From: Convolutriloba macropyga
Taxonomy: Eukaryota
Length of the DNA: 64,000 nucleotides
Assembly: GCF_964194025.1 (NCBI RefSeq)
Contig: NC_134477.1
Coordinates: 26,970,001-27,034,000, forward strand
Direction: 5' to 3'
Of the stretch, positions 17,215 to 56,922 are shown one piece after another. The notes beneath the pieces were generated by a model, which saw nothing but the letters and a program-made list of their open reading frames with translations, had not been told where the DNA came from and did not search any database. The position numbers and the translations under genes were made by a program. Numbering within the stretch: the stretch's first letter is position 1; the number at the start of each line of letters is the position of its first letter.

Positions 17215-18116
17215 CCCTAGTTGAGAAGACCGAACAAAAACGACACAAGAAATGTTCGGTATGTTCGGTTTTCTACGTAAGAAATGGTCGGCGTGTTCGG
17301 TTTGTTCGGTATGATCGGTTTCAAATGAAAAAAATTGTCGGTATGTTTGGTCTAGAAGGTAAGAAAGCTTCGGTATGTTCGGTTTTGCGAGATTCGGTAT
17401 GTTCGGTTCGGAATGTAAGAAAGATTCGGTATGTTCGGTATTTAAACATAAGAAATCGTCGTTATGTTCGGCTTTGGACACGAAAAATTGTCGGATTTTT
17501 CCATTGGGAAAATTGATATTTCTGTTTATAATGTAGTCAAACGTTACGATAGCGTTCTTTTTGCAGGAATTTCAAACGTACGTTTCAAAGAAAAAGTCTG
17601 GAAAAGTGTGCAAAACTCCTGAAAATTTTTCTTTAGCTCGTTGGCCAAACTAGTTATGCAATTATAAAGTTCTTGATTATATTTGAATTTTAGAATGTAA
17701 CATACTTGTTGAAAATTGATGAAAATTTTGTTAAATAATTCACTCTCACTGGGATTGGACATACTTTCTTGTAGTTTACAAGTAAGTTCTTTGACGGTTG
17801 GTTACGTGTGAAAAAGAACGTGCCGACCGAAATTTCTTCCATGTTTATTCGTGGTAGGAAAACTCAAAATATGATAGTTCTTAATGTTTCTCTCAACGAT
17901 ACCGAATCTCTCTTACGTTAAAAAACGACGATACCGAATCTCTCTTACCTTTAAAAACGACAATACCGAATCTCTCTTACGTTAAAAAACGACGATACCG
18001 AATCTCTCTTACGTTAAAAAACGACAATACCGAACCTTTCTTATATTAAATACCGAACAAAAACGACAATACCAACAATTTCTTACGTTTAAAAACCAAA
18101 GATTTCTCAACTAGGG
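17215..18116. mobile_element. Non-autonomous foldback/MITE-like DNA transposon (CMC/EnSpm-like architecture)
   Basis: 13-bp TIRs CCCTAGTTGAGAA (17215-17227) / TTCTCAACTAGGG (18104-18116), 2-bp flanking duplication GT. Left arm is an array of TTCGGTATG motifs; right arm is a 32-bp ATACCGAA-containing array in the opposite orientation. Confidence 0.8.
17896..18060. repeat. 32-bp tandem subterminal repeat (~5 copies)
   Basis: ACGATACCGAATCTCTCTTACGTTAAAAAACG-like units start at 17896, 17928, 17960 and onward. Confidence 0.9.
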
Positions 18117-18681: not shown

Positions 18682-21600
18682 ATGTATTTACATTATATAT
18701 TTACTTTAATACGCGTATTATACATTTTTGATATTCAAATAATGTAAATAAGAAATTACCTGTATATGAGGCCAAGTTAGCTTTACAATTCGTGCGACAC
18801 AATTTGGGCGATCCGTAATCGATTTAAAATAATTTATAGGGACTTTATAAAAGGAGCAAATACTTCAAAGAAAGCTGTCAAACTAGTCAAAGTCTGTTTA
18901 ACAGAAGGACGCAAAGATCCCTTGGTGTAATGATTGATAACAATAATAAGTAAAACTTAGCTGGATGGATCCAGAACTAGACCCGGCCGGTGAAAAATTT
19001 GAGTTATCATATCTTGGTTATTATTCTAATTTTCATTTCAAAAGGTTGATTTAGAATAACTGGTTGAGAGATTTCGGTGATGTATTATTCTTAGAAAAAG
19101 ATAAGAAATAAATTGTGTAGCTGAACTTCTTTTGCCGGAAGTAATGAGCAAGAAACTGAATATTTTTTAGAGCTGCCAAGATAAAACTCACTAGAGGGAA
19201 TTCTTAAAATTTTTTCTCAAAACTGAAAACAACGGAAGTTTTACATTTGCTGTTTTGTTGTTTTTAACCCTCGGAGGAGTGATAACCGATACGTGAACAG
19301 TGACCATAGCAACGCCATTGGTTACGTATACAGGATAAGAAAATACTTTTTTGCTTTGAGATAGGAATAAGAAAAAAAAACGAAAAAAAAAATCAAGAAA
19401 AAGTAAGAAAGAATAATAAAGAATGAGAAATTTGACAATTGAAGCCTCGCATACAACAAATCATGCCTGGCAACAAATCATGCCTGTCATTTAAATAAAT
19501 GACATTTTTGATGTCAACAAAGCTTCATGTTCCTCAAAACTTCTGCTTTGAGTCTTGCTTATTCTTGCTTGAAAATTCACAGGCCACTTAAAGAACTGTT
19601 CCATCAATAACCAATTGCTGTCTAAGATGCCTTTTTCCTAGCTGCAGCTGTTAATGCTGACTTAGATATGGCAGAAAAATGGAATAAAATTTTTCAATCC
19701 TGTTCAACCCTATTGTCTTAAATACTGCAAGTCATATTGATATCAATTCAAGTTTGCAGCCTGTGGGTACTCAATCAGTCTCTGTTATATCAGTTCGTGG
19801 GTGATCCACTACCATGCTGATTGCAAGAGGAGCGAGATAATAGTCACATATGAAACTCAAGTAAAGCTTATAATTTTTTCCCCACCCTTTAGAAGGGTAT
19901 TCTTAGTTAAAGAACGTGTCACCCAAAGAGCGAGGATAACTAATATCAATGAGTTTTTGATCAAAGGTTCTGCTGGCTATTTTGATGCCTCATAACGAAA
20001 TAAAGATGAAAACTTTAGTAAGTGACCTAAAGTGACCTATCAGCAGACCATCCCGGACCAAATCAACTGATGCTTAGCCCGCAATGTGCGTTTATTAATT
20101 AACCGGACGAGGGAATTTGAAAATTTACCGAATTGCTTATTATTGTTCATTGCAAGAAATGAGTTCTAATAACCAGAGTTGAAACTTTTTTTCATTGCTT
20201 TGTTAGTTTTAGGTCCCTCGAAGTGAATTCTCATCAAATGTTGTGCAAGCAATGGTTTCCATATTTGAACGTTTGTGCTTTCAGTTTTGTCTCAATCTAC
20301 CTGTACACTATTATTTTACGTTTGCAACAACTTATAATCAGACAAACGCATGTTCAAAAATTGAAAAAATGACCTATAAGGTTTCATACAGCATTTATCA
20401 GTTTTTCAGTTGTTTTTATGACAAATGAGACTTTGCAAATGTGAGCACATACTTTTTCTGTTCAAATTAGCCTCTGCAGATTTGCTTGTAAATATAACGT
20501 TTGGTTATGGGGATGGTTATCTGGTAGATTTCAATCAGGATCTTATAAAAAGGTGCATCGTCTTAAGCAATTATCTTTCAAAATCATACAAGATAAGCAA
20601 TTGTTGTGCAAGATTTTTACAATATAAGCATTTGTCATGCACATTTCTTGCAAGATTAACATTTGTCTTACAATGGTTTTGCATAGCAACGATTCATCTT
20701 GCAGATGTGAATAGTGCAAAAACAAATTTGGAGATCATCGACATATGAGGAAGAAGAATACTGTTATTTTTTTCAATGGTATTTAACTTGAAAGTCAAAA
20801 AATTAATTTAAAGAAAAAGACTTTAATACCTACTAATGATTGAAAAACAAAAACGGATATAGGTGTTCTTGGTTGTGTTTCGCCAGATGTATTTACATTA
20901 TATATTTACTTTAATACGCATATTATACTTTTGATATTCAAATAATGTAAATATGAAATTACCTGTATGTGAGGCCAAGTTTGATTTACAATTCGTGCGA
21001 CATAATTTGGGGGATCCGTAATCGATTTAAAATAATTTATAGGGACTTTAAAAAAGGAGCAAATACTTCAAAGAAAGCTGTCAAACTAGTCAAAGTCTGT
21101 TTAACAGAAGGACGCAAAGATCCCTTGGTGTAATGATTGATAACAATAATAAGTAAAACTTAGCTGGATGGATCCAGAACTGGACCGGGCCGGTGAAAAA
21201 TTTGTGTTATCATATCTTGATTATTATTTAAATTTTCATTCCAAAAGGTTGATTTAGATTAACTGGTTGAGAGATTTCGGTGATGTTTTATTCTTAGAAA
21301 AAGATAAGAAATAAATTGTGTAGCTGAACTTCTTTTGTCGGAAGTAATGAGTAAGAAACTGAATATTTTTTAGGGCTGCCAAGCTAAATGATTTTTTAAA
21401 ACTCACTAGAGGGAATTCTTAAATTTTTTTCTCAAAGCTGAAAACAACGGAAGTTTTACATTTGCTGTTTTGTTGTTTTTTAACCCTCGGAGGAGTGATA
21501 ACCGATACGTGCACAGTGATCATAGCAAAGCCATTGGTTACGTATTCAGGATAAGAAAATAGTTTTTTGTTTTGAGATAGAAATAAGAAAAAAAAACGAA

Positions 21601-23070
21601 AAAAAATCACAAAAAAGAAAGAAAGAATAATAAAGAATCAGAAAATTGACAATTGAAGCCTCGCATACAACAAATCATGTCTGGCAACAAATCATGCCTG
21701 TCATTTAAATAAATGACATTTTTGATGTCAACAAAGCTTCATGTTCCTCAAAACTTCTGCTTTGAGTCTTACTTATTCTTGCTTGAAAATTTACAGGCCC
21801 CTGTAAAGATGCCTTTTTCCTAGCTGCAGCTGTTAATGCTGAATTAGATATGGCAGAAAAATGGAATAAAATTTTTCAATCCTGTTCAACCCTATTGTCT
21901 TAAATACTGCAAGTCATATTGATATCAATTCAAGTTTGCAGCCTGTGGGTACTCAATCAGTCTCTGTTATATCAGTTCGTGTGTGATCCACTACCATGCT
22001 GATTGCAAGAGGAGCGAGATAATAGTCACATATGAAACTCAAGTAAAGCTTATAATTTTTTCCCCACCCTTTAGAAGGGTATTCTTAGTTAAAGAACGTG
22101 TCACCCAAAGAGCGAGGATAACTAATATCAATGAGTTTTTGATCAAAGGTTCTGCTGGCTATTTTGATGCCTCATAACGAAATAAAGATGAAAACTTTAG
22201 TAAGTGACCTAAAGTGACCTATCAGCAGACCATCCCGGACCAAATCAACTGACGCTTAGCCCGCAATGTGCGTTTATTAATTAACCGGACGAGGGAATTT
22301 GAAAATTTACCGAATTGCTTATTATTGTTCATTGCAAGAAATGGGTTCTAATAACCAGAGTTGAAACTTTTTTTCATTGCTTTGTTAGTTTTAGGTCCCT
22401 CGAAGTGAATTCTCATCAAATGTTGTGCAAGCAATGGTTTCCATATTTGAACGTTTGTGCTTTCAGTTTTGTCTCAATCTACCTGTACACTATTATTTTA
22501 CGTTTGCAACAACTTATAATCAGACAAACGCATGTTCAAAAATTGAAAAAATGACCTATAAGGTTTCATACAGCATTTATCAGTTTTTCAGTTGTTTTTA
22601 TGACAAATGAGACTTTGCAAATGTGAGCACATACTTTTTCTGTTCAAATTAGCCTCTGCAGATTTGCTTGTAAATATAACGTTTGGTTATGGGGATGGTT
22701 ATCTGGTAGATTTCAATCAGGATCTTATAAAAAGGTGCATCGTCTTAAGCAATTATCTTTCAAAATCATACAAGATAAGCAATTGTTGTGCAAGATTTTT
22801 ACAATATAAGCATTTGTCATGCACATTTCTTGCAAGATTAACATTTGTCTTACAATGGTTTTGCATAGCAACGATTCATCTTGCAGATGTGAATAGTGCA
22901 AAAACAAATTTGGAGATCATCGACATATGAGGAAGAAGAATACTGTTATTTTTTTCAATGGTATTTAACTTGAAAGTCAAAAAATTAATTTAAAGAAAAA
23001 GACTTTAATACCTACTAATGATTGAAAAATAAAAACGGATATAGGGGTTCTTGGTTGTGTTTCGCCAGAT
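18682..23070 (+). repeat. ~2.2-kb tandem duplication (18682-20888 / 20887-23070)
   Basis: Both copies begin ATGTATTTACATTATATATT and end GTGTTTCGCCAGAT, with a 2-bp AT overlap at the junction. Identical ORF translations are offset by 2182 bp. Confidence 0.95.
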
Positions 23071-27134: not shown

Positions 27135-27442
27135 CGTACAGAAATGATACGAATTAATCGTAAACTTCGCTTTAAAAGTGTGACTCACATAACATCGCTC
27201 TGATTTCATGACTTTCGATGAGAACAACAAAAAAGAACTTGCAGATACAAAATTTGACATTATTAATCACACGAGAGAAAATTTTATGACTTCACACGAG
27301 AGAATTTTAGAGTGATAGCAAAAGAGTCAGCCTTTTACATGGAATACAAGTTTTGAAAAATTATAATTAAAACATTCAAATGTGGAATTGGAAAAAAAGC
27401 AACCGGGCAATTAGTAGATTTTAGAGGGTAATATTCACTGCA

Positions 27443-27850
27443 TACTTACTTACGTACTATTTACTACTTACTACTTACTACTTACTACTTATTACTACTT
27501 ACTACTTACTGCTTACTACGTACTACTTACTATTTACTACCTACTATATAATACATACTACTTCTTACTCAGTAATTACTCTTTGCTACTTTCTACTGAC
27601 CACATAATACTTACTACTTTCTATTTACACCTTACTGCATACTACAAACTACATACGACCTAAATACTACAACCTAAATACTACATATGACTTAATATTT
27701 ACATAATTAACATGTTTACTCATTAATACTAGATAATTTTTACCTTCTGCTTGCTAATTACAACATACAATATAAAACCTAGTGAATAATGCTTACTAAT
27801 TACTACTACCTACGTACCACTTAATACTTACACAATACTACCTACTAAAT
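27443..27850. repeat. (TACTTAC)n 7-bp microsatellite decaying rightwards
   Basis: Near-perfect CTTACTA runs at ~27460-27545, then degenerate TACTA-rich sequence. Confidence 0.85.
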
Positions 27851-33300: not shown

Positions 33301-33766
33301 CTGGAGCCCCATTTGTTCTGAGCAACCTTTTAAGTAGCACAATAACACGGAAAATTTTCTCAACTGAGTAAAACGATTAAATGTCGCGTAGCTATATTTC
33401 TCTACTCTCCTACACCTGGCGGACAATATAGAAAAAACGTCTCAGCTACATTATTAATTATCTCTGGAGGAATGGAAAGAGAACCGAAATTGAAGACACT
33501 GCAGATACAGCAGCAGAGACCAATACTGTCAAACTTCAATAGCCCTTACCAGTCTGGAAGCAAGATATCAACCCAGAGAACACCTACCTCTTAGGCAAAG
33601 CACAATCTAACAGCTTGCAACGACACCTCAGTAAGGAGGTCACCTTAAAATTGCAATAAAGCCATTATGTGATCATGCTTACAAAGGAATTTGGAGAGGG
33701 CTTAGATGAAATTAGTTGTTTTCCATATTTTTTTCAAAATGGCCGTCTAACTTGCTACCTACATAA

Positions 33767-33906
33767 CCGAAAAATCTTGCTACGTACATAACCATCAGTC
33801 ACCAGTACAAACAAACTAGAATAATTTGGGCACGTGCCGAAAAATCTTGCTACCTACATAACCATCAGTCACCAGTACAAACAAACTAGAATAATTTGGG
33901 CACGTG
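33767..33906 (+). repeat. Nested 70-bp tandem duplication (repeated at 35566-35705)
   Basis: CCGAAAAATCTTGCTAC...TTTGGGCACGTG occurs twice (33767, 33837) with one substitution. Confidence 0.9.
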
Positions 33907-34249
33907 GTGAAGGCCACTTTTTCTGAATTATAAAAATAGATTAAACAAAAAGTGTACTCTCAGGGTCCGAACTAATAAAAAATCTACCCAGAAGTTATCC
34001 AGGTTTCCGCAATGAAATATTGGCTATAGGGGTTGATAGAGAAATTTCAGTATGCCTCCTGCAAAATTATTCTTTTTATACGCTTTCTTTGGCCATCGAA
34101 AAAGTTCAAATGAAAAATCTTAACGACAGCATCGGTCTTAAAATCTTAACGACATTCGAAAATCGCCGAGCAATTTCAAGGTCACGTTTCAACCTCAAAA
34201 ATTTATTTTTCAATTCCGCTGAAAGTCTAAAGTTTTCACCAGCCTAGGA

Positions 34250-34920
34250 TCTTGACAACAAAAAAAAACATGCGTCACTTGTTAAGAGTAATGTGGAAAA
34301 CCAGAGTTAACAAAGTATTTGTTCAAAAGCTCGCCAATGTACAAAAAAATCATGACCAGTAAAAACTTCGAGATTCTTGTCGCTGATTACCTGTTCGACT
34401 GAACCTCTAGAATTCATAACCTCAATAGTAATAACACTAAGTAACATTTTGCCATACATCTAGAAGGATTGCCTTGCGCGGCCGGATATACCTCCTGATG
34501 AACAACAGAAATCGACAAACTCTTGGACCGTGCAGTTTCTTCATTACCACCGATCAAAATGCCACGCCATCTCTTTAACCATCTACTTCATAATCTTCAG
34601 ATGCATTGCTTCTGCGATGCAACCCAGCTAGCTTAGGTCACAGTTTTGCTTGTCAGAGCTCAAACTGACAAGCTTATAGCAAATTGGTTGCTGATATTTG
34701 GAGCCAAAATTGCGCCTTTGACAAAAATTAGTTTTCTCATACCGGAAATACACACCGCAATGCTTAGTTGCATACTAACACAAATTGATCTGAAGCAGCA
34801 TAAAGTTATTGTTATCGAAGGATAATTCCTGAGTGATAGCAGAGCTGTTCTGGCGTGGATAAAAGCCAAAGACAAGCCAGTAACTTCTGTTGCCACCCGC
34901 TTTCAGGAAATCTGCAACTA
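34250..34920 (+). mobile_element. BEL/Pao pol fragments inside the duplicated unit (second copy 36050-36720)
   Basis: LSDSRAVLAWIKAKDKPVTSVATRFQEI resembles the Pao RNase H SDS...FVANR motif (~34830-34912); an AIHLE integrase-like motif lies at ~34451. Confidence 0.55.
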
Positions 34921-37639
34921 AACATCAATAAAGAATTTAAATTAAACTCGTATTAAACTTATATGCGACGAACTTGGAAACGACTTTGGGAAGGGCTAGT
35001 TGAAATTAGCTGCTTATTTATGTTTTCTCAATCCCGCCGCCTGAAGAACCTACCTCACCATCAGTTAACAACACAAACAAATGGGAAAATTTTGGGCAAG
35101 TAGCAAATGCCGTTTTTTCTGCTTTTGAAAACTAGAAAATAAACAAAACAAAATGAACTGAGGGCCTGACATAAAATTAGATTTCTCTCCAGATTCTGCA
35201 AAAAAATTGGCTTTAGGGATTCTTATAGAAACCTTGATATGCCTCTTGAAAAATGATCAGTCTTTTTTTGGGCATCGAAAAGCTCAATTCAGCATCTCCA
35301 GTGAAGCCGTCTTATTTCTGGAGCCAGGTAAACTTCAATAGCCCTTACCAGTCTGGAAGCAAGATATCAAACCAGAGAACACCTACCTCTTAGGCAAAGC
35401 ACAATCTAACAGCTTGCAACGACACCTCAGTAAGGAGGTCACCTTAAAATTGCAATAAAGCTATTATGTGATCATGCTTACAAAGGAATTTGGAGAGGGC
35501 TTAGATGAAATTAGTTGTTTTCCATATTTTTTTCAAAATGGCCGTCTAACTTGCTACCTACATAACCGAAAAATCTTGCTACGTACATAACCATCAGTCA
35601 CCAGTACAAACAAACTAGAATAATTTGGGCACGTGCCGAAAAATCTTGCTACCTACATAACCATCAGTCACCAGTACAAACAAACTAGAATAATTTGGGC
35701 ACGTGGTGAAGGCCACTTTTTCTGAATTATAAAAATAGATTAAACAAAAAGTGTACTCTCAGGGTCCGAACTAATAAAAAATCTACCCAGAAGTTATCCA
35801 GGTTTCCGCAATGAAATATTGGCTATAGGGGTTGATAGAGAAATTTCAGTATGCCTCCTGCAAAATTATTCTTTTTATACGCTTTCTTTGGCCATCGAAA
35901 AAGTTCAAATGAAAAATCTTAACGACAGCATCGGTCTTAAAATCTTAACGACATTCGAAAATCGCCGAGCAATTTCAAGGTCACGTTTCAACCTCAAAAA
36001 TTTATTTTTCAATTCCGCTGAAAGTCTAAAGTTTTCACCAGCCTAGGATCTTGACAACAAAAAAAAACATGCGTCACTTGTTAAGAGTAATGTGGAAAAC
36101 CAGAGTTAACAAAGTATTTGTTCAAAAGCTCGCCAATGTACAAAAAAATCATGACCAGTAAAAACTTCGAGATTCTTGTCGCTGATTACCTGTTCGACTG
36201 AACCTCTAGAATTCATAACCTCAATAGTAATAACACTAAGTAACATTTTGCCATACATCTAGAAGGATTGCCTTGCGCGGCCGGATATACCTCCTGATGA
36301 ACAACAGAAATCGACAAACTCTTGGACCGTGCAGTTTCTTCATTACCACCGATCAAAATGCCACGCCATCTCTTTAACCATCTACTTCATAATCTTCAGA
36401 TGCATTGCTTCTGCGATGCAACCCAGCTAGCTTAGGTCACAGTTTTGCTTGTCAGAGCTCAAACTGACAAGCTTATAGCAAATTGGTTGCTGATATTTGG
36501 AGCCAAAATTGCGCCTTTGACAAAAATTATTTTTCTCATACCGGAAATACACACCGCAATGCTTAGTTGCATACTAACACAAATTGATCTGAAGCAGCAT
36601 AAAGTTATTGTTATCGAAGGATAATTCCTGAGTGATAGCAGAGCTGTTCTGGCGTGGATAAAAGCCAAAGACAAGCCAGTAACTTCTGTTGCCACCCGCT
36701 TTCAGGAAATCTGCATTTAAACATCAATAAAGAATTTAAATTAAACTCGTATTAAACTTATATGCGACGAACTTGGAAACGACTTTGGGAAGGGCTAGTT
36801 GAAATTAGCTGCTTATTTATGTTTTCTCAATCCCGCCGCCTGAAGAACCTACCTCAACATCAGTTAACAACACAAACAAATGGGAAAATTTTGGGCAAGT
36901 AGCAAATGCCGTTTTTTCTGCTTTTGAAAACTAGAAATTAAACAAAACAAAATGAACTGAGGGCCTGACATAAAATTAGATTTCTCTCCAGATTCTGCAA
37001 AAAAATTGGCTTTAGGGATTCTTATAGAAACCTTGATATGCCTCTTGAAAAATGATCAGTCTTTTTTTGGGCATCGAAAAGCTCAATTCAGCATCTCCAG
37101 TGAAGCCGTCTTATTTCTGGAGCCAGGTAAACTTTTTCCACTGCCATATTTGACCTTCAATAGATATCTAAGCTTTTTGCTGACAATGTTTGGAGAAAAA
37201 AATTTTCTTAAAAACTTATCAAAAAATTCTGTCAATTCGTTTGCTGATGACACACTAGCTCAGAACAACAAAAAAGAATTTGACAGACACTTGCAAGGAT
37301 AGGTTTCATTCTTATGTCGAATTCCGATCAAAGTCTAAAATTAATGAAAATCGAGGATCGTGACAATAACAACTAAGAACTTCACATCTTAGTTGTAAAT
37401 TGAAAAACCGGAGATGGTACGAAACTTCATCAAACGCTTTCCAAAGTACAAAGATCACTTGAGCAAAAAAACAAATCAAACATTTGTGTCGCTCATCGCC
37501 TTTTTAATGCCAAATTCTAGGGTTTCAAGCCTTCCTATAGAGCTTTGCCTTTAATTATTTCGACTGTTGGCGCTTTAGAGCACAATAACTACAGCCATCG
37601 ATGTAAAACCTGTCAGATATTTGATCATAGGAACCACCG

Positions 37640-47483: not shown

Positions 47484-47920
47484 TATAACATCCCCTTCCT
47501 TAGGCAACCTTCGGGCAAATATTTCATCAGTTAACCTTGAGTTTATCTTTAAACTTATCTGTTTTAATTTACGTATTAGAATAGCTAAATCGTTCATGAT
47601 TGGTAGGAGTGTAAAATCTTGTGAGAGCTTGATAACTGCGTTGGCCTAATTGTTTCCAACTTTCGCTTAACGATATTATAATCTGTAAATCCAGAATCAA
47701 GCAAACTTCTTGAGAACTCTAAATTTGTGTCATCGACTTTGAACCTAAATTAATACATTTTTGTGAAGCGAAATTTTGTTAAATTCTCAGATCGGAAAAT
47801 ATCAATAGGTAAGATCAGTTCCACAGTAATAAAATTACACAACTTAAACTAAAAAAAACAACCCAATTGAGAACCCCGCTTTTAACGCGTTGTTTTCATA
47901 TAATAATCCGGGTTGTTACA
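47484..47920 (+). repeat. 5' LTR of the Gypsy element
   Basis: T(A)TAACATCCC...GGGTTGTTACA; direct repeat of 56487-56922 with about 16 substitutions and 2 indels by eye. Confidence 0.95.
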
Positions 47921-48398: not shown

Positions 48399-49422
48399 AT
48401 GAGGTTTGATGCCGATGCGGCGCTAGAAGCAAAACTACTTCTACCAGAGCCTTTCAATGGTACCAGTGATATTCAAGCTTATATAACACAATTCGAACTT
48501 CTAAGTTCGCTCCAAAATTGGCATAAAAAAGCATTCAATACTGATGGCACTCCACAAGTAGATGATGCTGGTTAGCAAGTCTGCATTGATAAAAGGCACA
48601 CGGTTTTTTTTGCGATTACGAGGCAGTGCCATAGAATTTTATCAGTCGTTAGACGACGCTACTAAAAATGACCATACAGAACTTACGAAACATTTTTTGC
48701 GTCAATATCAGGAACCACCAGAGTTTGTTCGCTCTTCGCATGCTAAGCGGTTGCAAGGTAAATCCGGAAAAGTCAGTGAGTTTTTAGCAGAGCTCAAAAT
48801 TTTAGCGAACAAAGCTTACCCACAGGATACGCAGCCAATAAGAGACCACATTGCGCTCCAATCTTTCATTGAAGGCTTGCACAATGTTCTTGTTCGGGTT
48901 GAACTCCGTAAAAACAAGCCCGCCGCCATCAACTTAGCTCTCGAGTCTGCTCTACATTTCAACGCCATTTACCGTCTTGACGCTCGAACAAACGAAACCC
49001 CTAGTTCCTCGACTGCTTTAAATACTATCGAGGCCCTATCACATAAAGTAGACAAACTAATGGCGGGACAACTGAATTATCAGTCGCGTTCTCAACCATT
49101 TAACAGAAAATCGAACCGCAAAGGCAGCTCAACGCATAAATTGTCTCCGTTATCCAAACGCACATCTCCTAATTACTCTTGAAGTCCCTCGTTAAATAGT
49201 GAGCAACAACGGTCCTCTTCTCCTCGACAAGCGTTCACACATAAATCTCGAAGTTGTTCAGTAAGCAACGACAGAAAAGTTAGATTCGCTGGACCGACCA
49301 TCTGTATTGGTTGCAACAAAAAAGGTCATACCAAAAACGTTTGCAAAAACTGCTGGAACTGTGGTTCCTCTCAACATCAACGCGGAAACTGTCCAGAATC
49401 TCAATCATACTCTAAACGATAG
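48399..49422 (+). pseudogene. gag: gag pseudogene with two CCHC zinc knuckles
   Basis: MRFDADAALEAKLLLPEPFNG...YITQFE..W; capsid-like RLQGKSGKVSEFLAELKILANKAYP...QSFIEGL; CIGCNKKGHTKNVC and CWNCGSSQHQRGNC at 49303-49392. Internal stops and a frameshift. Confidence 0.9.
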
Positions 49423-49499
49423 CTCTTCTTATTGCTTTGAAATTTTCTTGAGAGTGTTTGTTCTCCACTTTTAATAACCCATGGCCTACAATGAACGTA

Positions 49500-52400
49500 T
49501 ATTTGGCATACAGTCGCTTCTTTCCAAAGTACTAATCCCTTGTTGCCCGCCTTGATTCATTCGGGTGCGGCAATTAGTGTAATACGCACTGATGTTTTTG
49601 GAAAGCTCGGCAATTCTAGCCAATCGTTTAAACTGGAAGCATCTGATATCCAGGCATCTGCTATTAACGGCACAACGCTCAGGTTTAAGGGTATGTGCTT
49701 GCTTCCATGCCGTTGGTTTAAAAGTGGACCAATTTTTTTCTTTCAAGTTTTACATTTGTACAGATTTAAGCGCTCCCTGTGTTGTCGGTTTCGACCTTTT
49801 ACACAAGGAAAAATGTGCAGTTGATTTTTGTCAAGGATTCTGGATGTGGGCAACGCAGTGCTGGAATGTGTGAGCCCACTAGCTCAATGGTACGAGAGAA
49901 ATTCGCAAACAGCACAAATTGCGCTTTGCTCTGTATCTGATCGTTTTCTAATACCAGCCCGTAGTGAAGCCCATGTTAAATGTAGGCTAAAATCTGATCA
50001 TGCGCATAAGTTTTTAAGCAGTACGCGTACTTCGTCGACGCGGCTGTCGGTTTGGTAGAGCCCTACGTGGGTTTCACCAGTTTTAACTCTGTACTAATTG
50101 CTTCATCTCTTATTGCATTGGATGGAAATGAAATTCACTTGAGAGTATTGAACCCTACTTGCAACTCCGTGACCGTATTTCCATCTCAAACAATGGCGCA
50201 AGTTTCGCATTTCAATGAGAATGAGCTGCAAGCTGTAGGTTTTAATGCTGTCAACGTTTCATCAGCCAACAAACTGATGAAAACATTTGAATCTTTGTTC
50301 TGTGCACTTTCTGAAGAACAGCAGAAAGACGTGCTTAAGCTGCTCAAACTGTACAAAGATGTGTTTTCCCGTGACAAATGGGACTTATGTTCAAGAGATT
50401 TACATAAACTGCGAATTCAGTTGAAGGAAAACGCTCAACCTTGTCGCGTCCCCTACAGGGTTATGAATCCTTCAAAGCGGAGGGATCTGAAAGAAAAGAT
50501 TACCAAACTTAGAGAAATGGATCTTATTGCTCCCACTCATTCCGAATGGGTGGCTCCAACGGTGTTAGTTCCGAAGAGTTACGGTTCGTGTCGATTGGTA
50601 ATTGACTATCGCAAACTGAATGCGCAAACCGTCAAAACATCCTGGCCTCTGCAACGTATTTCAGACATCCTGAACAACCTTGAGGAAAGCATTTTCTTCT
50701 CCAGTAGTGATCTTTGCAGTGGTTTTCATCAAATGGAAATTGAAGAGGAAGACCAACATTTAACTTCCTTTAAAACGGCATTCGCATTGTATCAATGGAA
50801 AAAGATGCCCATGGGCCTTTGCAGTGCACCTGGAGCGTTTCAAAGGTGAATGGAAATTGTCCTCTCAGGACTGATCTTTGAAATTGTTTTGGTATACCTT
50901 GATGACATCATAGCTTTTGGTCGTTCTTTTGAGGAGCATAATAACCGTCTTCAATTAGTGTTCAGACGCATTGGGGACGCAAATTTTAAAATTTCTCGCG
51001 CTAAATGTTCCTTGTTCCAAACAAAACTCGTTTTTTTGGTCATGTGTTTTCTGCTGAGGGTATACAAACTGATCCTGCAAAGATTGAAGCCGTCGAAAAA
51101 GTAACCTATACCCCAAACAATCCGTCAGTTAAGACCATTTATGGGAGTTGTTGGGTTTTATCGCAAATTTGTTTTGAAATTTGGCACTTTTGCCTATCTT
51201 CTTTATCGATCAATGAATAAAACAACGAAATTCCAGTGGACCCCGGAATGCCAACAAGCTTTTGAAAAATTAAAGGGAGCGCTTGTTTCCGCCCCAATTT
51301 AAGGTTTTCCAAATGAGAGCGATCAATTTGTCCTCTGCACTGACGCATCGATCACGGGTATAGGAGCTGTTCTCTCACAGAAACAGAAAACAAGGGAAAA
51401 AGTAATTGCCTATGCTAACAAGACACTGCAAAAAGGTCAGCGAAACTACTCCGCTACGAAACGTGAACTGTACGCTGTTGTGTTTTTCAGCTCATATTTC
51501 AAGGAGTTTCTTTTGGACAAACGTTCCAAATCAAAACAGACCATCGCGCGTTGGTTTGGCATTACTCATTCAAGGATCCGGATGCAATAGTGGCACGTTG
51601 GCTAGAGAAATTGAGTATGTTCAATTTTGAAATCGTACATCGTCCGGGAAAAACAATTGCAAATGCTGATGCCCCTTTCCAGATTAACTCCATTGAAGTT
51701 GTCTGCTACATCAGTAACTCCAAGCCGCCTTTCGTCACCTTTCTTTGCACAAATTCAAGATAAAGACAAAGCAATATCAACAGTTAAAGCCCGGTGTCGT
51801 TCTGGAGAAAAACCATCGAGAGCAACGATGTTTGGTCGATCATGCATTTTGCAATGTTACTGGCAGCAATTTGAGTCGTTACAAATTATTGACGGCGTTC
51901 TCTATCGTCTATTTCAAAAGGCTTAAGTATCAACTCAGTTTCAACAGTGTTGTGTCACAATAAATCAAGTGAAGGATATCCTTCTGCAATTGCATGATTC
52001 GCCTGCTTCAGGTCATCTGGGTAACAAGAAAACTCTGGACAGAGTTTGCCAGTGTTTCTACTGGCCAGGACTAAACAAATGATGTTGATTCCTGGTTCTC
52101 AGGGTGCGGAACTTGTCAGAAGCGAAAAAACTCAAAACAGTCACATCAACCGGAGATGCAAATTTGTTCGTTTCAAAAACCCTTTCTCTGTGTATCCGTT
52201 GATATCCTTGGACCGTTACCAGAGAGGCGGTTAAACGAAAAGCTATACAAAGACATCCTAATGATTGGAGATCATTTCACTCGCTGGTTCGAGGCAACGC
52301 CGCTTCAAAATATTGAGGCTGAGACAATCTAAAGCGCCTTTTTAGACAGCTGGGTCACCAGGTTTGGTGTTCCTGAGTATATTCACAGTGACGACGGATC

Positions 52401-53327
52401 ACAGTTTACATCAAAACTCTTCGCAGACATGTGCAATAGGCTGCTTTTGACGCCTTCCAGATCTACTCCTTACCACCCACAAGGAAAAGCCAAGGTCGAG
52501 CGCATTAATCGCACCTTGGAAGATGGCCTAGCAAAGTATTGAGAAGAGCGGCACCTAGTTTGGTCTGTTCATTTGCAATCTTTCATGGTGGCGTACCGGT
52601 CGGCAGTCCACGAATCAAACGGTCAATCGATTGTTTTTCGAGAGAAATGCGCATGCCCGTCGATATCTAATGTCCGACGTTGCCACCCCACATGTTGGTC
52701 ACAGAGATTACGTTTTCCAGCGCTTAGTAGAAGCTTCTTCAATATTTGAGTCAGTAATTGAGAAAGATTGCTGGGAAATGCGGCGACAAAAAGCCATTTT
52801 CGACAAAAGCGTAGTCCTTCATATAAGGAGGGCGATCTGGTGCTTATACATTCACCAATTTTTACTCAAGGACAGACCCCGAAGCTTAAAAGTTTCTGTT
52901 CAGGGCCCCATTGCATTACAAAGGTGATAAAGTAAATCAAATTGTTCTGAGTGATGTAAAAATTCACAAGCAGCAGATCGCCCACTGCGATCGTATTAAA
53001 CCTTATGCGACTCCTGATCAGCGACTCCGCAAAAAGCGCGCGAACCATCAAAATATTAAAAAGACGCACCAACCAGTCCCGGTAGATGATAATGATCTTG
53101 TATTCCTTGATCTGACGGACTCCGACGTCCCGACCCAACATGCTGCACAGGCTCCAAGAGAACCTGCTAGCTCTTCCATTACGTCGCCATCAAATTTTTC
53201 ACCAAATCAAAATAGTTGTAGTTCGCCGATAATTCCTCAAAGATCACATAGAGCTGCCGCTGTTCACGCACGCCATCCAGAGTTTTTTCGATTGGCATAT
53301 TTTGATTCAGAGAGTGATATTGAATAA
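49500..53327 (+). pseudogene. pol: pol pseudogene (protease, RT, RNase H, integrase)
   Basis: ALIHSGAAISVI (protease, catalytic Asp appears as His); RLVIDYRKLN, DLCSGFHQ, MPMGLCSAPGAFQR and YLDD; CTDASITGIGAVLSQ and NYSATKREL; HDSPASGHLG...YWPG; DHFTRW, IHSDDGSQF and YHPQGKAKVER; GP(H) motif near 52900. Multiple stops and frameshifts. Confidence 0.95.
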
Positions 53328-55200
53328 TGTGTTTAGACGCGTCGGTTGACACAATTTTTTTGTGGTTGAGCTTGTTAACAACTGGGTCTTCTACTTTAGT
53401 GGGGTATAATATCGAACAAGTCCTCACCACAAAAATCTTCTCGCTTCTTCCGAGTGAACAGTGCACTCCTGTTAAACTGAGCACGAAGAACATTTCTTCC
53501 GGTGGCTTCATACTCCACGCGCCTGAGGTTGACATTCAAATGAGTTTTTGCATGTTTCAAGCTTCCTACGCTGTAACTGGCCTAGCTCATTCGGCCCGAT
53601 TTGACGACTCCGTTTACCTGAAGAAATAATCGCGTTTGGTTCCCACATATTATGCATTAGAAACATGGGTTTGTAGGGCCAATTGGAGCGGTCGCAGTTT
53701 CAAGCTCCCAATTTTTGATGATGAAAAATTCAAAATGACAGAAGAAGATCTTTTTTTTGAAGGACAGTCATATAAACCAGGCAAATTCAAGGTTTTTGAC
53801 TACTCCTACTCTTTCCTACGTGGTGGAAAAAAAGGTGGAATTTGCTCCGCTTGGCCTGTTGACTGAGTAACACCAGGGGGATCCAAAATTGATGCCTCGG
53901 GTGTCATCAGTGCAAAACTGACTATCGGAAAAGTTGTTGCTACACTAGACAAAACCAGTAATCCCTGGTCTTTAGTCATGACTACCCTAACGAAAGATTA
54001 ACGAGCAGTTTTCCGGGATCTGACTTCCAGCATGATTCAATCACTTACTTACCGCATTTCTACGGTCAATGTGAGATCAAATCAATTTTCGAGTTCTCAC
54101 CTGATCAACTAGGGCTTCACATCTCGTCGGCTGACTCCATGTACTTGAGTGGAAAAACAGCCTCAACGGATAATTCTCGTGTGTTTTACATAGAGCTCCT
54201 TAACACAACTGTAACCGTCTGCTCGTATAAAGTTCGTCAGACAACCTACTCTGTTGTTCATTTTGTAATAGCACCGATAACTGAGCACATTCCCGAAATT
54301 GATTATAACACCGATACCATAACAAACCTCGTATCTGGCACAAAAATTGAGTTTGTTCACGTCAATGCGCATCTTTCGCCTCAACGTATTGTCCAACGAT
54401 AATCCAAATCTTTTTCTAGGATCAGGGTCAATAGTCCGCAAACATGCAGAAAAAGTGGGTGCTGTTTTATTTGTGCATAAATGCATACAAGTTGAAGCCG
54501 GAATTGCAGACTTTCCGTACTGCACAGAGGAGGTTCCTGTTTTACTGGGTAACGAAACTCAAATTCGCTTCATGAACCCTATTACACAGGTTGTTTACCC
54601 AAACTATACGCTAACTGCTTGCGATCCCATAGCGGCATATATGTATTGCACTTTGGAAGGCATTTGGATGCACTACGGGGATGACTACCCAATCGCACGT
54701 CCTACTGAGTCTCTGAGTGTTTTCAGTCACTTAGATTTCAGTGAAAAATTACCCTCTACACACCGCTAGCCTCTTTTCATACCAAAATTTGAGACAAAGC
54801 GCTAAATCTCGAATACTGAAATACTCACCACGTACCATTTTGGGAAGAGAGGTTTACCTTGGTCCCAATAGTCAATATTCCCATCCAGGTTTCATACACT
54901 TCAACCCTAGTATTTCCGGCGAGTTGGAAGGTTTTGTGGCGTGGAAGTAATTGATTGATTCGCTTTCGGTTGCAAGTGGTGGCTGGTATTACGCCGAAAG
55001 GTGTACTGCAATTACTTTGACAGTTTTTGCACTACTTCTGTTGATCATATATGTCTCGAAGCTCATTTTTGCTCTATGATTGCTTTCTCATGGCGTGCCG
55101 TTTTGGACTGTTTTCAAGCTTCTCAACCCAATTGCGCCTTTCACACAAATGCTCCAGAATCATCTTTGGAGCTTTAATACATCCGCGCCTGCAAATCATA
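53327..55200 (+). pseudogene. env: env pseudogene resembling chuvirus/Monjiviricetes-type fusion glycoprotein
   Basis: Signal-peptide-like N-terminus, then VGYN...FSLL----C; CSYKVRQT; TKIEFVH; GAVLFVHKCIQVE...CTEEVPV...FMNPITQVV...CDPIAAYMY...GIW; C-terminal hydrophobic segment (CTAITLTVFALLLLIIYVSKLIFAL, ~55000-55075); several N-X-S/T sites. 3' end approximate. Confidence 0.75.
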
Positions 55201-55450
55201 ACGAGGATCATTTTTGAGTGAGACCATTGAACCTGTTGATAATCGGACGCTTGTGGTTGATTTAATTTATCCGTCGAATAATCTAGCATATACGTGCTAT
55301 ACAACAAAAATTTAAGGCAAAGAAATGGTTCTCTCTTTCCGCGAAAAAATTCTATTAAACGAATACTTGACAAAAAAAATTTTGACTTTGTTGCATCTTT
55401 CAACCCTCATGAAAAACAAGCTTGAAATTTTTAATAACTGCGTGTTTCAG

Positions 55451-56450
55451 ATATCAAATGGCAACGATGATGTTAGTGTTTCGCCTGCATCTCCAGGCCC
55501 TGAAATCCTCCTCGACCCCGACCTTCTCTCTGGTGCTTCTTCGCCAGTTCTCACCCTCAATGACAATCCTATGGAATCTAATCTCAATAAGGGAGTCACT
55601 GGCAACTGGGCCAGTGATCAGTCCTTGGAGTTCAGGGAGAGTCTCGCAAATGGCGGACAGAAATCTGAGCCTCCCTCCTCTGCTTTTTCGGACGAGATGA
55701 CGGTTTTTTTGCCCGAAGTCTGCTGCAAAAATTCCTGTTGTTCAGCCTATATCTTAATCCACCGCCCCTACGGTCTCGTCCAGTAGTCCTCAAGAGGACC
55801 GATCTCAAAGACAAACCATGGGTCCTCCTCGGAATGCTCCTATTCGAGTGAACGGAATGGCCTACTCGCGGAGCCTGAACGCTGTGTTCCGGGTCGTCGA
55901 GTTCTATCGCAATGGTAGAATTCGACTTCAAGACCCGTACAATGCACGACGCAGACCGCTTTTGTACCCGATTGACCTCGTTGCGGTTCCCTTGGACAAC
56001 GTTGCGGAGCACCGCGATCTTCGGGATCAAATCCAACGTTTACGTCGTTCTCGAGATGCACATGAACGTGATCTCTACGACGCCACTGAGTAACTAGATA
56101 AATCAAAAATTCGCGTGTCCAAGTTGAATCAAATGTTGGAGGACTCCCGCACTGCCAACAGTTTGCTGTCCGCGGAGGTTGTCAATCTCGAAAAAAGGCA
56201 ACCGAAGCGCCCGAAGGCTCCTAGAGTCCAGAATGCAGGAGTCAACACGGACTCTGGGTCTTTGCACGAGCAGTGCTCCACCACTTGCCGTCATCTAAGA
56301 GCCCTCCAACGAGATGTTCGTTCCCTGCGGTGCGAAGTCCTTCGCGGAGCTCACAGTTCAGCCAACAAAACCAAAAAACTTAAGAGAAAACCCCGCTCGC
56401 GTTCTTCGAGCTCTTCCACGTCCTCTTTCTCTGGCTCTGCGACAGAGTAG
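55451..56450 (+). pseudogene. Orphan fourth ORF of the Gypsy element (~330 codons, interrupted)
   Basis: ORFs 55818-56093 and 56115-56450 share a frame, split by one TAA. The upstream acidic Ser/Pro-rich part is in another frame (inferred frameshift near 55700). The region is GC-richer than its flanks and has coiled-coil-like and basic segments. Confidence 0.6.
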
Positions 56451-56486: not shown

Positions 56487-56922
56487 TGTAGCACCCCCCT
56501 TCCCTAGGCAACCTTCGGGCAAATATTTCATCAGTTGACCTTGAGTTTATCTTTAAGCTTATCTGTTTTATTTTACTTATTAGAATAGCTAATTCGTTCA
56601 TGATTGGTAGGAGTGTAAAATCTTGTGAGAGCTTGATAACTGCGTTGGCCTAATTGTTTCCAACTTTCGCTTAACGATATTATAATCTGTAAATCCAGAA
56701 TCAAGCAAACTTCTTGAGAACTCTAAATTTGTGTCATCGACTTTGAACCTAAATTAATACATTTTTGTGAAGCGAAATTTTGTTAAATTCTCAGATCGGA
56801 AAATATCAATAGGTGAGATCAGTTCCACAGTAATAAAATTACAAAACTTAAACTAAAAAACAACCCAATTGCGAATCCCGTTTTTAACGCAGTGTTTTCA
56901 TATAATAATCCGGGTTGTTACA
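56487..56922 (+). repeat. 3' LTR of the Gypsy element
   Basis: TGTAGCACCCC...GGGTTGTTACA, followed by the TSD ATAA. Confidence 0.95.

Follow-up and report, generated by a model that had tools for sequence, protein, structure and literature searches.

The window analysed here is a stretch of 64,000 nucleotides from the acoel Convolutriloba macropyga (contig NC_134477.1, positions 26,970,001 to 27,034,000), and between its positions 47484 and 56922 lies an env-bearing Ty3/Gypsy element with the gene order LTR-gag-pol-env-ORF4-LTR (LTR, long terminal repeat; ORF, open reading frame). Positions 55451-56450 are a decayed copy of a genuine fourth gene of this element, ORF4, situated between env and the 3' LTR. 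Ty3/Gypsy features are present throughout: paired LTRs (96% identical, 419 of 435 aligned bases), a short target-site duplication (4 bases, ATAA, read from the flanks; also 4 bases in L061, a young copy of a related family), and gag followed by pol, which encodes protease, reverse transcriptase, RNase H and integrase (PR-RT-RNaseH-IN), the protease being recognized from sequence reading only. Pfam domains of the window occur in the order gag, RT, RNase H and a fusion glycoprotein of the chuvirus/glycoprotein B (gB) type, PF24664, which scores above its cut-off in an Env ORF after pol that also has a hydrophobic segment. Every gene of this copy is broken.

47484..47920 (+): 5' LTR, pairing with the 3' LTR; ends read from sequence
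47807..47813 (+): splice-donor-like site AG/GTAAG within the LTR, 15 bases upstream of the AATAAA at 47828
48409..49422 (+): gag, broken, start approximate; PF03732 on 48562-49179, codons mapped to the young copy
49481..53327 (+): pol (PR-RT-RNaseH-IN), broken, with its own ATG and separate from gag; PF00078, PF17919 and PF17917, with rve on young copy L061
53328..53336 (+): splice-acceptor-like tract, AG end directly before env; AG conserved in aligned loci
53337..55315 (+): env, chuvirus/herpes-gB-type fusion glycoprotein, broken; PF24664 (window, E 4.3e-9; young copy, E 4.6e-20), with a hydrophobic segment around residue 583
55437..55450 (+): splice-acceptor-like tract, AG end directly before ORF4; read directly from the window
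55451..56450 (+): ORF4, decayed copy; start ATG missing, frame broken once, two stops; compared with the young family, dN/dS is 0.11
55605..55640, approximate (+): conserved Trp motif (NWASD...F) in the part of ORF4 predicted to be the disordered N-terminus
55830..56000, approximate (+): predicted SH3-like beta-barrel block, homologous to residues ~128-183 of protein P0001
56010..56200, approximate (+): predicted long helix, coiled-coil-like; helix 187-251 of P0001, pLDDT mostly >90
56265..56450, approximate (+): Cys/His-bearing short helix, basic tract and poly-Ser tail, from the sequence of representative proteins
56487..56922 (+): 3' LTR, pairing with the 5' LTR

In this copy ORF4 is not a single open frame: an ATG is missing at the start-homologous position 55451, the frame breaks near 55700-55714 (as seen from tblastn pieces), and stops occur at 55755-55757 and 56091-56093. 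The coding-like peptides quoted in a preliminary description of this DNA were all found within 55451-56450, in two frames: that of 55451 holds the acidic, Ser/Pro-rich start, and a second frame, terminating at the stop 56448-56450, holds the stretches beginning IRVNGMAY, DLRDQIQRL and SKLNQML, together with KTKKLKRKPRSR and poly-Ser. That description had drawn the limits of the gene well, as 55451-56450 are natural gene limits and the acceptor-like AG at 55449-55450 adjoins 55451, and its gag-pol-env-X layout between LTRs is borne out by Pfam, by the LTR pair and by position across loci.

Conservation of ORF4 within and beyond its lineage

A DNA search of the genome returned a sister family at 67% identity in which a 330-codon frame beginning with ATG is open in 26 of 27 loci, and a protein search (121 of 147 candidates scored) returned 41 full-length matches at 99-100%, 40 of them without a stop. 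Taking one young copy as the reference, we made codon-level comparisons with 20 natural loci; ORF4 was alignable in 15, of which 14 pairs gave ratios of nonsynonymous to synonymous divergence (dN/dS) of 0.11-0.34 and one further pair was saturated. As all of these pairs use the same reference they are not independent, and the values are inflated by decay that followed insertion. Over 288 codons, the window and the young open copy differ with dN 0.23, dS 2.04 and dN/dS 0.11 (72, 41 and 169 differences at codon positions 1, 2 and 3), next to 0.06-0.09 for gag, pol and env; the same comparison in shifted frames gave 1.5 and 2.7. Between the window and its decayed sibling L080 the ratio was 0.85 for reverse transcriptase (RT) and 0.8-1.4 for ORF4, both as neutral decay predicts. 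Within the same pairs, the dS of ORF4 is similar to that of pol and env, and ORF4 was therefore inherited together with the element; env lies directly upstream in 29 of the 31 loci with an ORF4 match (33 loci examined). Judged by these comparisons, ORF4 is a conserved open accessory gene under purifying selection. An open frame with dN/dS below 1, for which the preliminary description had proposed to test, is thus found in the young sister family, and the nested insertion or host-gene fragment that it had named as the alternative is contradicted by the fixed place after env and by the lack of any host-gene match.

A search with env identified a second env-bearing lineage (lineage B, L081-L093) whose gag and pol are ~50-55% and whose env is ~62% identical to the young family, which belongs with the window to lineage A. 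All 13 lineage-B loci chosen by env carry, at the same place, a homologue of that lineage's ~390-aa ORF; this deeper lineage has a positional counterpart of the same architecture. The lineage-B protein (392 aa, with a poly-Asn start and a 150-residue helix) repeats the plan of lineage A: its acidic N-terminus bears a Trp motif and is followed by a basic block of 58 residues, then by a long helix, a basic tract and poly-Ser. Ten of 12 pairs give it a dN/dS of 0.30-0.50, and for the two closest pairs the ratio is ~1. Comparison of full-length profiles of lineages A and B gave a probability of 93-95, a value inflated by coiled coils. Homology of ORF4 between the two lineages is likely from the sequences, and falls short of proof because the block by itself fails against shuffled sequences and the lineage-B fold lacks a confident model.

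Open homologues also occur among unnamed protein records, three at 41-46% identity (P0007, P0009, P0045) and one at ~30% (P0078), and a further one (P0083) is 34% identical to lineage B. Members of these clusters sit on contigs of up to about 9 kb, and the best genome matches reach 42-50% identity for P0045 and about 27-50% for P0078; metagenome and viral contigs gave no DNA context for the distant homologues. The term orphan, used in the preliminary description, therefore holds for named families and not for relatives as such: searches with six ORF4 proteins gave only sub-threshold coiled-coil matches in Pfam, a sequence search of the PDB gave coiled coils only (best E 0.0033), the ESM Atlas gave no usable match, and no host gene and no viral protein was matched by sequence searches.

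Several observations concern the copies themselves. The young family comprises about 40 copies at 99-100% with distinct flanks, and the LTRs are identical in the one copy taken whole; near-identical copies, identical LTRs and distinct flanks together indicate a very recent burst. Its ORF4 product is identical to RefSeq protein XP_075258679.1 (LOC142350654, Convolutriloba macropyga), which is annotated as an uncharacterised host protein though it is the product of a multi-copy element. Contigs assembled from reads of four runs differ from the assembled copy L061 at few places, single-base length differences among them, so that some frame breaks of assembled young copies may be assembly errors. 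The window copy has a TAA-rich flank, which raised the idea of microsatellite targeting; this was rejected, since the young copies have 28 distinct 3' flanks that are mostly ordinary AT-rich DNA. Two old, internally deleted derivatives were also found, one (L075) that has kept a pol fragment and ORF4 and lost env, and one (L077) with gag, env and a weak ORF4 match, and no pol between gag and env.

Protein anatomy and expression signals

The AlphaFold model of a natural young-family protein (P0001, 14-sequence alignment) has a disordered part at residues 1-121, a barrel at ~128-183 (predicted local distance difference test, pLDDT, near 90), helices at 187-251 and 279-301, and a disordered tail. 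The barrel, of the small type with a 3-10 turn ahead of its last strand, superposes on SH3-like domains (VIA-align Z 6.3-7.1 and root-mean-square deviation, rmsd, 1.4-2.1 A in most rows), including R67 dihydrofolate reductase (Z 7.1, 1.9 A, 55 residues), DSIF KOW6-7 (Z 6.7, 1.7 A, 50 residues) and the PHF1 Tudor domain (Z 6.8, 2.1 A, 54 residues), with further matches to Spt5 KOW, ribosomal eL6/eL14, the Tudor domains of PHF20/UHRF1, PWWP and BAH. According to the model, the ORF4 block of lineage A is an SH3-like barrel of the KOW/Tudor type, in agreement with what the preliminary description had guessed for its beta-rich block, and the coiled-coil-like stretch noted there is predicted as one helix of 65 residues. 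The structural rows are tied, with Z below 8, and so inform on fold and not on function. The Foldseek comparison that had been suggested yielded no PDB match at E 0.001 or below. Retroviral integrase C-terminal domains were not among the Foldseek rows listed, which excludes nothing; an origin of the barrel from the C-terminus of the element's own integrase was considered and rejected, the two showing no similarity (probability 0.2).

Within the block of ~58 residues there are 8-10 Lys/Arg and 4-7 Asp/Glu, and counts and alignments give 4-5 aromatics in lineage A, one in lineage B and no conserved cage pattern; with a basic charge and few aromatics, nucleic-acid binding would fit better than a methyl-reading cage. 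Seven representative proteins, five of lineage A and two of lineage B (P0080, P0083), were compared. All seven have an acidic N-terminus (net -5 to -15 over 120 residues), the tripeptide W-A-[S/D/E], and a basic tail (net +4 to +9 in the last 45 residues) with a basic tract that, at the level of sequence, resembles a nuclear localization signal (NLS); none has a membrane segment. C-x-x-x-C-R-H is present in four of the five lineage-A proteins.

Directly before ORF4 there is a T-rich tract ending in AG, seen in the window itself, in 27 of 27 young loci and in 11 of 13 alignable older ones; such a tract also directly precedes env in 12 of 12 aligned loci. One or both LTRs retain a donor-like GT in 11 of 14 aligned loci (20 loci examined in each of these comparisons of older or aligned copies). 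The lineage-B loci have an AG one base ahead of ORF4 in 13 of 13 cases, and a GTAAGT was read from the sequence at a similar place in the LTR of this lineage. A major donor inside the LTR and upstream of the poly(A) signal is the arrangement described for foamy viruses in the accessible text of PMC3694450. From these signals, we infer that the RNAs of ORF4 and env are probably made by splicing from the LTR donor. Reads from four runs gave, on the young copy, contigs of flat depth with about twice that depth on the LTR, as in DNA; joints of the LTR to env or to ORF4 are absent from these DNA-like contigs, which has no bearing either way on splicing.

The pol gene has an ATG of its own ~50-60 bases past the gag stop (window 49420-49483; L061:2147-2209; L081:1946-1999). 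Four in-frame stops separate gag and pol in the young copy, and in lineage B a stop directly precedes the pol start in L081 and in 9 of 9 other aligned loci. A single frameshift or read-through could not yield Gag-Pol from such an arrangement, and pol would therefore need to be reached by splicing, by re-initiation or through internal entry. For the ORF4 and env RNAs, internal promoters are a realistic alternative to splicing, as the Tor elements of Oikopleura show (PMC4402516, in part).

A putative regulator of the element's own RNA

Among the roles that the preliminary description had offered (RNA-binding factor, nuclear regulator, anti-silencing protein), indirect signs favour action on RNA: the likeliest single reading, at a probability of roughly 0.42, is that ORF4 regulates the element's own RNA, resembling Rev and CERV in role and not in sequence. 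Under this proposal, a spliced RNA would join the donor of the 5' LTR to the acceptor just before the ORF4 ATG, and env would be expressed likewise through a second acceptor; the element would also have to export unspliced RNA for Gag and for packaging. The basic SH3/KOW-like barrel and the basic tail of ORF4 might bind this RNA, the long helix (seen in a monomer model only) might mediate self-association, the N-terminal Trp motif could pass the RNA to host factors for export or translation, possibly MIF4G proteins, and phosphorylation at Ser-Pro and poly-Ser sites could switch its activity. Consistent with this tentative proposal are the selection on ORF4, its linkage to env, the acceptor- and donor-like sites, the lack of a membrane segment, the charge plan, the basic barrel, the precedent of CERV (a protein of the C. 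elegans element Cer1), and a likeness between the Trp motif of lineage B and the SLIP1-binding motif (SBM).

MIF4G proteins with links to mRNA export and translation are the docking partners of the SBM; the contact positions scored were Trp, a small residue, Val at +4, an acidic residue at +5 and Glu at +8 (accessible text of PMC3763545). The same groove is used by a viral protein, and the PAIP1 contact is dispensable for bulk export, as far as the available part of bioRxiv 10.64898/2026.07.31.742013 describes. In lineage B (P0080, P0083), the sequence WA[D/E]EV[D/E] fits four of the five positions, a pattern reproduced by 23 and 44 of 20000 shuffles. The likeness to the SBM would lie in a Trp-small-x-x-Val-acidic core within a disordered N-terminus; unlike ORF4, the SBM has the last acidic position, and lineage-A ORF4 retains Trp-Ala alone. 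A low-sensitivity PF02854 search of the host (10 candidates scored, 8 matches) identified no SBM-binding MIF4G protein of the SLIP1, CTIF or PAIP1 type. Those of its genes that were read presumably resemble eIF4G, CBP80, NOM1 and UPF2.

Several points weigh against regulation of RNA by ORF4. The five lineage-A proteins, the window included, have only the Trp and the next small residue in common with the SBM (P0045 also has the +4 Val), and an acidic N-terminus with a Trp also fits an activation domain. Barrel matches are tied between folds that bind RNA, folds that read methyl marks and folds of enzymes, each with Z below 8. The 58-residue block of lineage B compared alone with that of lineage A scored 14.3, under the shuffled maximum of 15.1, and in the lineage-B model residues 1-210 have pLDDT below 50, leaving its barrel without a confident model. 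A simple pattern scan found no shared leucine-rich export signal (none in four of the seven proteins, and hits at scattered, non-matching places in three). As for splicing, the donor 8-mer ranks 123rd of 360 in conservation within the LTR, and no AG adjoins the env ATG in lineage B.

A more elaborate version is unlikely: that this old acoel Ty3/Gypsy clade independently reached the design of complex retroviruses. A single donor in the LTR would serve two acceptors, one each for env and ORF4, pol would be unfused, and ORF4 would be a Rev-like protein belonging to a new family; by mimicking the SBM it would recruit host MIF4G factors (of the SLIP1/CTIF/PAIP1 type) and so export and translate unspliced RNA without a CRM1 signal.

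ORF4 might instead be a transcriptional trans-activator or anti-silencing factor whose barrel and basic tail bind LTR DNA, chromatin or elongating RNA polymerase II and whose acidic, Trp/Leu-rich N-terminus activates, which we think unlikely but deserving of serious attention. Tas of foamy viruses and Tat of HIV have trans-activator roles. The position between env and the 3' LTR agrees with such a role, as do the acidic disordered N-terminus and NLS-like tract of all seven proteins, the likeness of the barrel to Spt5 KOW, PHF1/PHF20/UHRF1 Tudor, PWWP and BAH domains, and the nuclear location reported for products of some plant additional ORFs (aORFs; PMC7264820, in part). However, methyl-reading is doubtful because aromatics in the block are few and without a conserved cage pattern, family-library searches returned no known DNA-binding domain, and the SBM-like motif of lineage B points to messenger ribonucleoprotein factors.

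Less probable again is that ORF4 is a particle-associated adaptor, a matrix- or phosphoprotein-like oligomer that connects capsids of Gag, or RNA, with Env or the machinery of transport and was perhaps acquired with the chuvirus-type env. It accompanies env in nearly all loci (29 of 31), its plan of disordered N-terminus, oligomer helix and short C-terminal helix resembles viral phosphoproteins (one 'phosphoprotein' chain is among the weak coiled-coil matches, E 0.74), and the pol-less L077 retains gag, env and a weak ORF4 match; but L075 has ORF4 without env, the tail is NLS-like, a membrane segment is missing, and viral proteins offer no sequence match and, in BFVD, a best E of 9.8e-4 with an rmsd of 26 A and otherwise generic small barrels. 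The reading of 55451-56450 as a fragment of a host gene, a nested insertion or a 3' spacer without coding function, as the broken and neutrally decaying window copy and the RefSeq gene LOC142350654 might suggest, is largely refuted by the open young copies (40 of 41), by dN/dS far below 1 solely in the ORF4 frame, by dS comparable to pol and env, which indicates co-inheritance, by the fixed position after env in two lineages, and by the identity of the RefSeq protein to a multi-copy product. The probability left over from these readings belongs to unlisted roles.

Comparison with known systems

The 'ancient errantiviruses' of Chary and Hayashi (PMC13524379), Gypsy elements carrying a gB-type env, occur across metazoans. 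They share with the present element the order LTR-gag-pol-env, the Env type (PF24664) and many near-identical young copies, and are described with three ORFs where we find a fourth selected gene after env and a pol with its own ATG; term searches of the main text of that paper, and of 7 supplementary files for five acoel names, returned no acoel element and no gene after env. CERV of Cer1, a spliced non-structural protein required to export unspliced RNA (PMC10309623, in part), is the only tested export protein of an animal Gypsy element in the literature that we found. It is likewise an extra Gypsy protein, with a helical oligomer part, a basic NLS, a Cys motif and Ser-Pro phosphorylation for which ORF4 has putative counterparts; however, CERV has 517 aa, exons shared with gag, and H, M and G (GTPase-like) domains, whereas ORF4 stands apart from gag as a 3' gene coding for about 330-410 aa and shows, in the model, an SH3-like barrel and no G-like domain. 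CERV is not named among the sequence-search matches of ORF4, and it is set apart by description, with no direct sequence comparison.

In foamy viruses, the bel genes lie between env and the 3' LTR and pol is expressed separately. An LTR donor upstream of the poly(A) signal, combined with accessory genes, recalls the ORF4 element and its donor-like site, but foamy viruses are vertebrate Retroviridae with a different Env, and no sequence link to the ORF4 element was found. Their bel genes are accessory genes, and the accessory genes in the displayed part of the GyDB table are all from Retroviridae (PMC2238898, in part). Plant aORFs (PMC7264820) and bdelloid ORF3s (PMC5408684) are likewise conserved additional genes, mostly without a known function, placed between pol and the 3' LTR; in the accessible text of these papers they are third ORFs after pol, often antisense or enzymatic, whereas ORF4 comes fourth, in sense orientation, behind a complete env.

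Env-bearing Gypsy elements are described as three-gene, 'simple' analogues of retroviruses. We found no description of the ORF4 family in a literature search whose coverage left out most subscription papers, Repbase/Dfam entries and bioRxiv supplements; what appears to be new is a clade of env-bearing Gypsy elements with four genes, the fourth encoding an accessory protein from a family that has no name, combines a predicted SH3-like barrel with a long helix, and can be assigned a function only putatively. A selected fourth gene common to lineages with gag and pol ~50-55% identical points to a regulatory layer like that of complex retroviruses outside Retroviridae, and it makes the export of unspliced RNA by spliced invertebrate LTR elements a testable question; with about 40 near-identical copies, the RNAs of the young family should be measurable.

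Elsewhere in the window, four regions (33500-36900, 18700-22100, 27430-27850 and 17250-18100) contain tandem duplications with periods of about 1.8 kb and 2.2 kb, together with a CTACTTA-type array and inverted 32-base arrays.
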